From the NCBI RefSeq assembly GCF_004010195.1, contig NC_057721.1:70665336-70729335 (forward strand): DNA of 64,000 nucleotides, read 5' to 3'. Position numbers and translations under genes: made by a program. The notes under the pieces were generated by a model. It was not told the DNA's origin. It ran no database searches and saw only the letters and a program-made list of their open reading frames with translations. Shown piece after piece: positions 1,261 to 61,240 of the stretch. The stretch is from Chiloscyllium plagiosum (Eukaryota). Position 1 is the stretch's first letter. Every line of letters begins with the position of its first letter.

Positions 1261-4200
1261 CTGGAAAACCAAAATCAAAATTTACAAGGCAATTAGGTCC
1301 TGCCCAAAATTACTCAAAACAACATCCATCTATAATATCCCTTCTACCCTCACAAAGGTTGTGTCAGTGGAATTATGCACACGCTGAATGTCAGTCTCTG
1401 CAGATTGAGCAGGAAAACACTGTGTGCCATGAGGCAGTGGATCAGACATTGCCAATTTTGATCTCTCTGAGCAGCGCTAAGGGCTTTCAACTTCAATGAA
1501 GATTCCAGTCAGTTTCCCTGCTCTTCAGCGGAGATAGGAGAGAAAAATTACCTGCTGACTCCATCTGAAAGGAGGTGCATGCACAAGTCAGGCACACTGC
1601 AAACACCTTTTTTCCTCTCTTTACCCACACACCGCATTGACCCACCCGGTCATTTAATGAAGATATTGGAGAGCCCAAGAGAATCATATCCTGGAAAAGG
1701 CCAAGTACAATGCAGCGAGATTGCTAAGGTCTTGTAAGAAATCATTTACTTGTTGACAATTCAATCTCCATTTGCCTTAGTTTGTACTCAAGGCTGTCCA
1801 CAAACTGAATTCCAAGACTCTGTGCAATACAGATTCGCATCCAAAATAAATAAAAATCAAAGGGCAGCATAGTGGCTCAGTGATTAGCACTGCTACCTCA
1901 CAGCACCAGGGACCTGGGTTCAGTTCCACCCTTGAGGGACTGTCTGCATGGGTTTCCTGCCACAATCCAAAGATGTGCAGGTTAGGTGAACTGGCTTGGT
2001 AAACTGTCCAAAGTGTCCGGGGATGTGCAGGCTAGATGGATGAGCCATGGGAAATGCAGGGTTACACAGACAGGTGAGGGGTGGGTCCAGTGTGGCCTGC
2101 TATTAGAAGGGTCGGTACAGACTTGATGGGCCAAAAGGCCTGCTTCCACACTATGGATTCTGTGACTCTGATTCTTTGCCTCCCTTAACCTAACTTGTGG
2201 GCAGCACGGTGGCACAGTGGTTAGCACTGCTGCCTCACAGCGCCAGAGACTTTCTGTGTGGAGTTTGCACATTCTCCCGTGGGTTTCCTCCAGGTGCTCC
2301 GGTTTCCTCCCACAATCCAAAAAAATGTGCAGGTTAGGTAAATTGGCCATGCTAAATTGCCCATAGTGTTAGGTGTAGGGGAATGGGTCTGGGTGGGTTA
2401 GGCTTTGGCGGGTCAGTGTGGATTTGTTGGGCCGAAAGGCCTGTTTCCACACTAAGTAATCTAATCTAATCTAACCTAACCCCTAGTGTCACTCTAGACT
2501 TGGGGCAGAGGCCAGTGAAGGAAGTGAAATACATAGTATGTTGCGTTTGGATTATAGTACAACATTAGTGTTTAATTCACTGCGGCGTCTCCTAGAAATG
2601 CCCACCTTGACAATGTTATGTCCTCTACTGGACAAAGTTCTGATGAAAGATCATGGTCTGAAACATCACGTAGTTTCTCCCTTCATGGATTTGCACGATC
2701 TGCTGAGTATCTCTGGCAGTGTGAGATTTTTAAAAACTTTTTTTTGGCGGGAGAACGGAGAGGGGTGTGAAGAAGTCTATGATTATCAATGATATACTAC
2801 TGCAACATAACAACGAATGAAGAGAATCCGATGCATTGAGGTGATAGCTTGTCACTTCTCTATTAAAAAGCTTTTTCAAAATAATCCCCGATTTTGGAAC
2901 TCAAGCAGAACATTTACCTCTAGATTTTTTCATAGTTCCTGTTTCTGAGCCAGCCATGGAAAGATTGGACCGCTGTTCAAAATCCAGGTCTTCCTGAGAG
3001 CCATCGTTCCACTGACTGACTTCCTGCTCCACTTGATTTGTGGGTGCCATCGCTGAAGTTCCCTCTGCAGCACAAAGCTCAGCCAAGGGTAAGCTGCGAG
3101 TTAATGTCCGTTCCGAGGGAAGCCCAGAGATGCAGTCAGAGGAAGCGAGAGGCTGAGGTTCTTGCCTCAAGGACGCATCCATGGCAGCTGCGTAATCAGC
3201 CGACAGGGTCATTTCATCATCGATGACTAAGGGAGACTGGGAGGGCAAGATGGGAAATAATGTCGTCAGATTATTAATTGCTTGCAGCCAAGTCAAGCAT
3301 TTTAAAAGTTAAAGTCCCAAATTTGAACTGAATACTCAATGTTGTCCAACCCACGTATGAGAAATTTTCAAGTTCTTCCTCCCCTGCGCCACTTAATGAA
3401 CCAAGGGTGGATCAAGAGAAAACATCCCTCATGAAATCGGAGAAAAGTCAGATGGACATTTTAAGGAGGTTGAGACAGAACTTGGTGAAGCACAAATTAT
3501 TTCAACACATGTGGGAAAGCTGACTAATTGAGCACCAAGAATCCAATTTGCATATGAAAGTTTCCCAACAGGCTGAGAGCGCTGAAGTCATCACCAAGTC
3601 TCACCCCGTTTTGATTTGAACGTAAACCAACTGTTGCACCAATATCCAGGAAACATACCATTGTGCGAGCACCATCGTCACAAGGACCCCAGCAACTCAA
3701 GATGATCACTACCAGCTCTTTTTTTTGATTCATAAGATGTAGGCATTTATTGCCTGTTAGGAGTCAGCCACGTTACCTTGGATCTGGAGTCACATGTAGG
3801 CCAGACCAGGTAAGGACGACAGCAGGAGGTTAGAGAACACAGCAAGCCAGGCTGGATCAGGAGGAGGTGAAGATGACGTTTCAGGTGTAACCCTTCTTCA
3901 GGACTGTGGTGAGACTTAGAGGTTACTTTGGCTCTCAGCCCATCGGGAGGCCTGAAGAAAGGTTACACCCAAAGTGTTGACTTCACCTCCTGATGCTGCC
4001 CGGCTTGCTGTGCTCCCCCAGGCTCCTGCTTGTCTACCTTGTATCTGGCAGTTGTCTAAGACCAGGTAAGGATGACAGTTTTCACATTAGTGAACCAGCT
4101 GGGTTTTTATGACAATTGGCAGTGGTTAGTTACACCTCTGGAGTAGGTGGGTCTTGAACCCTGGCTTCCTGGTTCAAAGGTACTGATATGACGCTACTTC

Positions 4201-7200
4201 CTATGCCACAAAAGCCCCTACTACCAGCTTCTTATGGCAACTAGGGATGGACAAGAAATACAGTCACTGTCCCCATCCCAAAAATAAACAAACTGTACAG
4301 ATACACCATTTTGGTTGTGCCCCAACAGTGCTTTTACCAGTATTTATTATAAAGCTAAGAAGCTGGAATCTTTTAATATTTTGCACTTCTGAACTAAAAG
4401 GGAAATAAGAAACAGAAGTCCAATGTTACTCCCACATTGTGCCTTCAACACCATTAAAGTTAATTCCCAACCAAACAGGAAAAATAAACAACATGATTAG
4501 AGAAAACCCTTCCTCGCTCAAAATCAGGAGAGCAGTTATCTATCCGGCATTATATTCCACTTAATAGCTTCACCCTCTTTCCAATCATAACGACCCTAAC
4601 AATCAAAAATTTGCCAAATGTAGATGTTCTGGTTTGAGAAAGGGAGGAGGATGATTAAGACAGAGAGAAAGATGATCTCTGACATGATAACGAACTTACC
4701 TTTGTGACACCCGAAATTACCATTGTACTTCTCCTGACGGGAGACTTCAGCGTGTGCTTCGCCGATTCTGTTAGCTGTCGGATTGCAGCTTCAGCCACCG
4801 GGTCTGTGCCACTCAACTGCAGCAGCTCTACAAGAATTTAAGACTGAAATCAATGCCGAGAACACCCCTTAACACTGATTAAGGCAACGAGACCATCCGA
4901 CAAGAAGGAAACTACCTTGCATACATTAACAGCTGAATCCAAGTTAACCCAAAAAGAATACTCTCAACTGGTTTGTTCCTTCCTATGACACTATGCTCAA
5001 AACCAAACTATCGTTGTGCAGTATCCCTCAATTTCCTACTGAACTAGAATTTTTTTTAAATATTAGAATAAAGACAAACTTGTCTTTATTCAAGAACAGG
5101 CTGATGGTGACAAACAACTCAGTGAATTGGTTAGCTCAGTTGACTTGATGGCTGGTTTGCGATGCAGTGTGATGACAATAGCATGGGTTCAATTCCCACA
5201 CTAGCTGAGTTTGCTATGAAAAACCCTCCTTCTCAACCTCTCCCCTTGCCCGAGGCATGGTGACCCTCACGTTAAATCACCACCAATCACATCTCGAATG
5301 AGAAAGCAATCCTATGGCCCTTAGGGACTTTGGCAAGTTTACTTTATTTTTAATTACATTCAATTTTAATACACAGTCAGGCACTTCATTGTAGAATTCT
5401 CAAGTGTTGGCATATCAGATTGGGGTCAGATCAGCAAGACTTGTGAATCATGGGGAAAAAGTAGAAAAAAAACTCCTTCCTTAACAAAAAAAAAAGTTGT
5501 CAAACACCTTCTTACCAAGGGAGAAAGACCAGGGCCTCCCTCGAAAGTTGTCTCTTCAAATCTGTCTCGCGAACTGAATTTTCCAAATTACTGAAGCATT
5601 CTGCCAAGTTCATAAATACAGTAGACTGCTGTAGTCCATGAAGAAACACATGGAGAAACAGTAGAATGAATGTAATTGTTGTCAATTGAAAAAGAACGAC
5701 AGACTTGCATTTACAGCACCATGACAGAAGTGGGGAGCAGGGATGTGTGTTATCAAGCAGCAATGCAAAAGGAATAACCTGCTCATTCAGGTTTCTGACC
5801 TCTCACCAAACATGGACACAAGAGCTGAATTCCAGAAGCAAGGTGAGAACGACTGCCTTGACACGAAGCAACATTTGATCAAGTATTTGATGTCAAGGAG
5901 TCCTAGGAAAATTGATTGGGGCAGATTAAAACTCTATGCTGGTCAATTATACCTAGCACAAAGGAAGATGTTAAATCAATCATCTGAGCCTCATGCAGAT
6001 GTTAAGAGTCAGAGTCATACAACATGGAAACAGAGTTAAAAATCACAACACCAGGTTATAGTCCAACAGGTTTAATTGGAAGCACACTAGCTTTCAGAGC
6101 GACGCTCCTTCATAAGGTGATTGTCGCTCCGAAAGCTAGTGTGTTTCCAATTAAACCTATTGGACTATAACCTGGTGTTGTGAGATTTTTAACTTTGTAC
6201 ACCCCAGTCCAACACCGGCATCTCCAAATCATAACCTGGAAACAGACTGACTATTCAATCCAACCTGCCCATGCCAACTCCGCTTCCCAATCTAAACTTG
6301 TCCCACTTGCCTGTGTTTGGCCCGCATCCCTCTAAACCTTTCCTATTTGTGTATCTGTCCAAATGCCTTTTGAATGTTGTAACTGTTCCTCAGGGTCACA
6401 TCCTCAACCCAATCAGCTTCAGCTGTGCCATCGTAACAAGAGAAGCGGCTGATGATTACACAAAATGCTCAGCATCATTTGTGAATATTTCAATCCCGAA
6501 GTAGTCTGTGCCCACATGCAATAGCACCTGAATAAAATAGGCTTGGGGTGATAAATGTTAACTACACATCACACAAGTTCCTGTCAATGGTAGTTTCCAA
6601 CAATATAGAATCTAACTATTACCCTTTGACATTCAGTTGCATTACACTTGCTGAATCCCCCACTATTGACATCCTGCAGCTTATTATTGACCAGGCACTG
6701 GACTGAACTAGCCATATAAATAAAATGAAGTTACCATGTCAGATCAGGGGCTGGGAATTCTGCAGTGAGTAATTTACCTTCTAACCTCCAAAGCTTGCTC
6801 ATTATTGACAAGGCACAAATCAGGAGTGTGATGGAATACTCCCCATTTGCCTGGTTGAACCGAATTTCAATAACATTCAAAAAGCTTAGCACCATCCAGA
6901 ACCAAGCAGCCTGCGTAACTGGCACCACATCCACTACCTTCTATCCAGATGCACAATACAAGACACATTAACACTCCAAGGATTCTTTGTCAGCACCTTC
7001 CAAACCCATGAGCTCCAACACCTAGAAGGAGAAAGACAACAGATACATGGGAACAATTTGCACATTCCCCTCCACTCACATCCTGACTTCGAAATACCTT
7101 CATCTCCCTTCACTGTCACTGGGTCAAACTCCTGGAACTCCCATACTGTCAAAGACTACACTGGTTCATGAAAGCAACTCACCAGCATCTTCTTCAGAGC

Positions 7201-60808: not shown

Positions 60809-61036
60809 CACAAGAGAACAGCATTATGGTCCTCTGGGACTATGGCAATTTTACTTTTCCTCTATTCTAGATGCTGATCAATGCTACATACTCAGGGAAC
60901 ATTCGTATATCAAGTTATAGTGTATGCTAGGAGTTAATTGTGACCACTGTTACCCTCAATTTTCTCCTGTCGCTCTACAATATCACTTGCCTGGATGAGC
61001 ACAGGTAAGCTAATTAGCCATCAGCCTGGTTAGAAT

Positions 61037-61240
61037 TAAAAGTCACACAACACCAGGTTATAGTCCAATAGGTTTATCTTAAAACACTAGCTTTTGGAGC
61101 GCTGCTCCTTCATCAGGTGGTTGATGAAGGAGCAGTGCTCTGAAAGCTAGTGCTTCCAAATAAATCTGTTGGACTTTAATCTGGTGTTGTGTGATTTTTA
61201 ACTTTGTCCACCCCAGTCCAACACTGGCACCTCCAAGTCA
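61037..61240. mobile_element. Fold-back Penelope-like terminal repeat (family B)
   Basis: Inverted arms; TSD g(c/t)ctggttagaat at 61024-61036 and 61241-61253. Confidence 0.85.

Follow-up and report, generated by a model that had tools for sequence, protein, structure and literature searches.

Introduction

Minimal type-I hammerhead ribozymes on Penelope-like elements (PLEs) are a known class of motifs, and both the class and its link to these elements were described in 2014 (Cervera and de la Pena, 2014; PMC4209133; this and the other papers compared here were available in part). In that study, monomers of the PLE hammerheads were inactive and dimers were weakly active. The hammerhead of PAc, a Poseidon element from Anolis carolinensis, needs a protein for cleavage, and the part of the report that was available describes no RNA-seq ends at its site (Frangieh et al., 2024; PMC11167929). 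A study of retrozymes without long terminal repeats (non-LTR retrozymes; bioRxiv 10.64898/2026.07.22.740005) sampled one chondrichthyan genome. Here we analyze a stretch of 64,000 nucleotides from the shark Chiloscyllium plagiosum (assembly GCF_004010195.1, contig NC_057721.1, positions 70,665,336 to 70,729,335; "the window"), in which hammerhead-like repeats lie in and around a gene of the C2CD2/TMEM24 family. We consider it very probable that these motifs represent minimal hammerheads of type I, located in the pseudo-LTR (pLTR) ends of several PLE families, and that their dispersed 5'-truncated and fold-back copies undergo neutral decay and probably have no activity in host transcripts.

The motifs resemble the metazoan PLE hammerheads (PMC4209133) in the order CUGANGA-N-helix II-GAAA-palindrome-UH with a bulged base after A9, in the G10.1-C11.1 pair, the short helix I and the use of GUU and GUA triplets, in the presence of several consensus families per genome with mostly solitary truncated copies, and in the occurrence of opposite-strand pairs 100-700 bp apart; helix II is short here (4-6 bp), unlike in that set. 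With PAc (PMC11167929) they share the location of the hammerhead in a pLTR, two 3' ends 30-40 bp apart (the tail), abundant uncleaved RNA and the lack of RNA-seq ends at the cut site, whereas families A and B, unlike PAc, bear the C-X2-5-C-X2-C linker of Neptune and Nematis elements. Endonuclease-containing (EN+) PLEs of the Neptune type (Craig et al., 2021; PMC8557442) likewise have a reverse transcriptase (RT), a cysteine linker and, at the C-terminus, a GIY-YIG domain, and show 5' truncation, an inverted upstream copy and a tail at one end only. The non-LTR retrozymes also contain PLE-derived type-I hammerheads (bioRxiv 10.64898/2026.07.22.740005), but they are tandem non-coding units, whereas the copies described here are dispersed, solitary or inverted element ends. 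The searchable part of the supplement to PMC4209133 gave no match for shark, Callorhinchus or Leucoraja, and no literature on shark copies was found; Lunse et al. (2017) or supplementary lists may hold chondrichthyan or shark motifs.

Results

Hammerhead motifs in the window

A strict hammerhead descriptor (CUGANGA-N-helix II of at least 4 bp-GAAA-NN-UH) detected seven motifs in the window, with C3 at positions 2640, 7279 and 44819 on the plus strand and 3901, 45088, 46972 and 57335 on the minus strand, whereas 100 dinucleotide shuffles gave a mean of 0.01 and a maximum of one. Five of the seven have a Watson-Crick palindrome. When the same descriptor was applied to 194,319 further bases, 18 motifs were obtained compared to 0.02 after shuffling. 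Searches of the window with profiles of seven families (A, B, C, D, E, F and V) assigned 28 copies, of which 11 belong to A, 10 to B, 3 to C, 2 to V and one each to E and F; the motif at 2640 was claimed by no family. No match to a hammerhead family was obtained in a scan against Rfam. A microRNA identity was considered and rejected, as the corresponding Rfam matches were below threshold and sit on fold-back hairpins, which makes them artefacts.

The motifs that an earlier note on this DNA had listed are present at their coordinates, and six of its ten named positions pass the strict descriptor. The other four have changes in the catalytic core, namely G5U at 6087 and G12A at 17120, 51298 and 61087. 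Such G5U and G12A changes inactivate hammerheads. The palindrome at 57307, announced as ACGU, reads AUGU and can pair by wobble only, and the form given for family C turned out to be that of a worn copy (17120), the normal one being GGGUC/GACC(C/U), in which the cut triplet is GUU. The presence of GIY-YIG C-termini, at about 47180-47229 and at 57905-57985, was confirmed. As the note had supposed, motif density is high; the window is not exceptional in this respect, with 44 family copies per 100 kb versus 41.8 in 1.14 Mb of other DNA.

Ribozyme structure and covariation between families

Across eight family representatives, helices I and II covary, as had been claimed: two-sided changes occur in seven of ten pairs, 91% of the cells are paired, none of 500 shuffles scored as high, and slid controls of the alignment were 13-42% paired. 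The representatives were picked by hand, family B was excluded owing to misalignment, and related rows can beat shuffles of this kind. CUGANGA, GAAA and U16.1 are invariant across families, so that the conserved core is present, without a monomeric helix III. An unpaired base separates A9 from position 10.1, and the pair 10.1-11.1 is G-C in six of the eight representatives, G-U in one and A-U in one. The palindromic positions 15.2-16.2 are CG in families A, V, C, D, E and F and GC in family B, which departs from family A in its AGCU palindrome and CAC/GUG helix I. Two-sided changes around an invariant core constitute the signature reported for PLE hammerheads in the available part of PMC4209133.

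That the motifs are not ribozymes, being instead protein-binding or chance features of the element end, would fit with the folding of isolated motifs, which is no better than that of shuffles (z from 0.93 to -1.12 for six segments without a fold-back arm), and with the family A helix I, which has only three pairs plus a U-U mismatch. However, this is extremely improbable, as CUGANGA, GAAA and U16.1 stay invariant while the helices covary between families, as the motif is common to lineages with 27% protein identity, and as homologous motifs cleave in published assays.

Carrier elements have Penelope-like anatomy

The proposed location of minimal type-I hammerheads on Penelope-like termini is borne out for families A and B, for which RT, GIY-YIG endonuclease, target-site duplications and a tail could be identified. 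The distance from the C-terminal motif of GIY-YIG to the family A hammerhead is about 250-280 nt (252 nt past LG(T/N)LQPxG in the copy at 46880..47230), and in 20 of 20 loci the family A hammerhead is downstream of the endonuclease on the same strand; for family B this holds, within 1.5 kb, in 12 of 20 loci. The layout is seen best in locus L067, with an inverted upstream pLTR, RT (PF00078, E 4e-9), a cysteine linker, GIY-YIG (PF01541, E 1.6e-4; 22.4 bits at a cut-off of 22.6) and a 3' pLTR that contains the motif. Family B encodes an RT, a linker and an endonuclease of its own, the proteins of families A and B being 27% identical. The C-X2-5-C-X2-C linker between RT and endonuclease in both families points to a Neptune or Nematis type, as judged from the sequence.

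Elements of families A and B have two end points about 37 nt apart, and in 20 of 24 inverted pairs of family B (some pairings being ambiguous) the tail extension is on one arm only. A flank repeat of 10-15 bp is common to both sides in 9 of 15 inverted pairs of family A, and three fold-backs in the window carry duplications of 10-13 bp. The 3' flank of family A is shared by families C, E, F and V. The analyzed stretches, in which runs of N often interrupt element bodies, yielded no element that was both complete and unbroken. Head-to-tail tandem units as in retrozymes were not encountered, the window copies being solitary or inverted; a single direct repeat of two units, at 54841-55240, contains broken motifs. 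In two copies (L063 and L066) the endonuclease segment is triplicated in frame, which may be an assembly artefact.

Copy number in the genome

Matches to exact patterns in the 3.56-Gb genome amounted to 53,185 for family A, 14,834 for B, 2,073 for C and 1,656 for D, a total of at least 71,748 exact copies, compared to about 4,000 in coelacanth and about 9,000 in Xenopus in the available part of PMC4209133. Both strands were equally represented and reversed controls gave no match. In 1,142,905 bases that had not been selected for motifs (among them 0.95 Mb from five giant-gene intervals and 0.1 Mb flanking the window), 478 family copies were found (41.8 per 100 kb), of which 68 were intact, together with 86 matches to the strict descriptor (the 18 mentioned above and 68 others). 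Intact motifs occur at about 6-7 per 100 kb. Scaled up to the whole genome, this sample would correspond to about 270,000 motifs that match the descriptor and to remnants numbering about 1.5 million. Further families include C, E and F, which have a GUU triplet, and D, in which helix II is 6 bp long and a U is bulged (L215, L173, L015 and L217).

Inserted copies decay like their flanks

Among 161 unselected family A copies, the mismatch at non-CpG positions was 77/1588 (4.8%) in the core and 216/4800 (4.5%) in the flank (p 0.58). As the core decays like the flank, selection acted on source elements and not on inserted copies. The six CpG positions of the family A core, by comparison, had mismatches in 207/954 cases. 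These CpGs are C11.1-G12, C15.2-G16.2 and C17-G1.1 and thus coincide with G12, with the palindrome of the dimer and with the site of cleavage. Function is therefore lost through decay of the methylation type at about five times the rate at which the flank decays. For domesticated intronic hammerheads used by the host, a conserved core, a single copy and an active monomer fold were looked for, and this combination was not found.

In the five giant-gene intervals, 202 copies are in sense and 200 in antisense orientation; for intact copies the numbers are 25 and 30, and for strict-descriptor matches 31 and 37. Family B copies that retain their poly(A) signal intact were counted 18 times in sense and 23 times in antisense (p 0.53).

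Several points weigh against neutral decay of inert PLE ends. The association with open reading frames (ORFs) covers families A and B and not C, D, E, F and V, a Pfam search with pieces of the family B RT/endonuclease ORF came out blank, and the assignment of RT and endonuclease in that family comes from similarity to family A and from motifs. The flank columns of the decay test were picked after the profile had been seen. Intact family A copies lean towards antisense (14:22, p 0.24), the five intervals were inferred from same-strand Laminin-G hits and treated as single genes rather than taken from annotation, and the strand test rules out a sense depletion of about 2:1 but not a mild one. Furthermore, the poly(A)-selected reads considered below are blind to cleaved products and do not capture the cleaved share.

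A hammerhead dimer in the C2CD2-family intron is not favored

The host gene on the minus strand belongs, at the family level, to C2CD2/TMEM24 (PF18696, E 0.043; best PDB match TMEM24, E 0.009), several of its exons being blank in Pfam. For its pre-mRNA it had been proposed that the minus-strand copies 45057-45092 and 46941-46976 pair into a dimeric hammerhead in cis. Both are indeed intact in sequence, in sense orientation and in the same 11-kb intron. However, 45057-45092 is one half of a perfect palindrome: the fold-back at 45075..45108 extends over positions C3-A9 of this copy along with its helix II 5' strand, and since the copy is adjoined by its own inverted start, folding models place both C3-A9 and helix II within a 15-bp hairpin of the RNA, with a pairing probability of 1.0 for C3-A9 and a helix II probability of 0.0. 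ViennaRNA, which is approximate for three-way junctions, gave -10.5 kcal/mol for the dimer fold versus -16.4 kcal/mol for two monomers. Intron 1 is spliced in the datasets X1 and X5, whose presumed RNA nature is supported by their spliced contigs, and splicing was scored regardless of whether the sampled individuals carry both insertions. The proposal is thus not supported, in view of the predicted sequestration of one partner, the lower stability of the dimer fold and the splicing of the intron, and according to these models a dimer of the two copies in the pre-mRNA is unlikely.

More generally, intact sense copies might dimerise in host pre-mRNAs, with intron cleavage so frequent that the host gene is affected. 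The pair in intron 1 has the required sequence and orientation, the frequency of intact motifs corresponds to several per long intron, and published PLE hammerhead dimers do cleave weakly (PMC4209133, as far as it was available). Against this, one partner in intron 1 (C3 at 45088) is predicted to be fully paired in its hairpin, the sense strand of the intron holds no other intact family A copy, the monomer folds are the more stable, the intron is spliced in X1 and X5 without piles of ends, and copies in the giant-gene intervals show no strand bias, all of which makes frequent intron cleavage highly improbable. A pile of read starts or ends at the cut sites was not seen in libraries that could not show cleaved products.

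Dispersed copies that are silent alone might instead be completed in trans by element RNA or protein, the resulting dimer cutting host RNAs that contain an intact copy. The PAc hammerhead cleaves only with its protein (PMC11167929, in the part available), palindrome and helix I are family-specific (ACGU versus AGCU), as family-restricted pairing needs, and tens of thousands of exact copies exist. Nevertheless, the lack of strand bias and the neutral decay imply little cost or benefit, and we consider cleavage in trans very unlikely. Neutral decay of inert element ends continues to be preferred.

A used polyadenylation site beside the predicted family B cut site

In 88 of 100 family B copies the hexamer AUUAAA or AAUAAA lies about 10 nt past the cut site and is followed by a GU-rich tract; in the profiles of the other six families the hexamer was not found. 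Poly(A) ends were obtained from one single-cell poly(A) run (X19) of one sample from this or a close species, of which about 2% was read. Loose poly-T ends pile up 27 nt and again 30 nt beyond the position of predicted cleavage, with 577 and 702 reads (1,279 in total) on the family B copy L090 (positions 426-446) and 77 and 170 reads on the window copy at 52417..52629, where tailed family reads end at 52446 and 52443. Reads with both hexamers and several subfamily variants were present, so that many loci contribute. Polyadenylated family B reads, pooled over whatever base they have at G12, cross the cut site at a depth of 1887 versus 1734, and this continuous depth indicates that uncleaved polyadenylated family B RNA is common. 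Since genomic copies end further 3' than the poly(A) sites, reverse transcription would use read-through RNA. The family B site of the window (52443-52463, minus strand) lies in sense orientation close to where intron 1 of the C2CD2-family gene begins, its reads being pooled from family copies. A further 121 reads with a poly-T tail stop at L090:379, the distal end of the family B tail, and may mark another poly(A) site or, at some loci, a flank rich in A.

The 3' flank, marked only as AU-rich in the available part of PMC4209133, is thus a used poly(A) site in family B. AAUAAA is also found just 3' of Xenopus (2) and turtle motifs in the 2014 supplement (PMC4209133, searchable part), and a literature search on Penelope and polyadenylation returned no report of such a poly(A) site, as judged from titles and abstracts. 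The family B pLTR could be a hammerhead-plus-poly(A) module, in which cleavage strips the signal and determines whether the RNA becomes a polyadenylated mRNA or a template that is cut or can be circularised, perhaps with a layout that is general in vertebrate PLEs and with host poly(A) sites that could be switched off by an element protein activating the ribozyme; at present this remains a rather improbable proposal.

Other features of the window

The features are compiled in Table 1. At 51285-51590 a family A fold-back has landed in the T-rich end of a family B copy, constituting a nested PLE insertion, and at 54841-55482 two family A ends form a direct repeat, about 312 nt apart, with broken motifs in both. 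Other abundant repeats are located at 1861-2453, 18519-19088, 59681-59975 and 61584-62181 and at 34456-35032, 44029-44608 and 49116-49624; from their appearance we take these to resemble short interspersed elements and 3' ends of long interspersed elements. Coding exons of ATG101 (PF07855) are found at 58580-63596 on the plus strand, head to head with the C2CD2-family gene.

Table 1. Coordinates of hammerhead-bearing copies and the host intron in the window (strand "." where both arms or no single strand apply).
Feature	Position	Strand	Remarks
Family A minimal hammerhead, intact	46941..46976	-	Predicted cut after C17 at 46945; sense to C2CD2-family intron 1
5'-truncated family A Penelope-like copy	46880..47230	-	GIY-YIG C-terminus 47230-47117 (76% to L071), then 3' untranslated region/pLTR
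Family A minimal hammerhead, sequence intact	45057..45092	-	Sequestration in RNA predicted
Perfect fold-back, 34-nt palindrome, 15-bp arms	45075..45108	.	Inverted pLTR junction
Family A hammerhead, intact core	7275..7310	+	Antisense to C2CD2-family gene
Family A hammerhead, UUUU loop, palindrome decayed to AUGU	57304..57339	-	Upstream of C2CD2-family first coding exon
Worn family A copy (57731-57822), GIY-YIG C-terminus upstream	57730..57985	-	
Family B pLTR end with tail	44796..44950	+	Hammerhead 44815-44851: intact core, weak helix I, then AUUAAA
Family B fold-back insertion, 10-bp target-site duplication	6025..6246	.	Minus arm G5U; plus arm without CUGANGA
Family B fold-back insertion, 11-bp target-site duplication	61026..61253	.	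Arms G12A and C3U
Family B fold-back	52417..52629	.	Minus arm without C3, retains AUUAAA (52463-52458)
Family B copy (G12A)	51285..51590	.	Split by family A fold-back with 13-bp target-site duplication
Family V inverted pair	3812..4043	.	Minus arm with intact core (3871-3905); plus arm broken
Family C pLTR end, G12A	17052..17154	-	
Descriptor-positive motif without palindrome	2636..2671	+	Weak likeness to families A and C (E ~0.01)
Intron 1 of C2CD2/TMEM24-family gene (GT..AG)	41842..52856	-	Spliced in RNA contigs from two studies

Discussion

A possible course of events starts from active source elements, in which the hammerhead fold would be selected. In tandem transcripts of these elements, two motifs would be joined by pairing of the 4-nt palindrome and by a pair of short helices I, and activity of the dimer would probably be aided by the protein of the element itself, as reported for the PAc element of the anole, the role of cleavage being the processing of element RNA. 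If reverse transcription starts 3' of the motif, nearly every truncated copy would inherit the motif, which would lead to the very large copy number. In family B, cleavage and polyadenylation may represent alternative fates of the same RNA end.

In host introns the hammerheads appear to do no harm, selection on them being apparent for source elements only, and their scale in this genome makes the function of PLE hammerheads testable by statistics. The used poly(A) site beside the family B cut suggests a role of the ribozyme in the choice of 3' ends, which is directly testable. If this proves true, well over 10,000 scattered family B ends would provide host transcripts with poly(A) sites that an element protein could switch.

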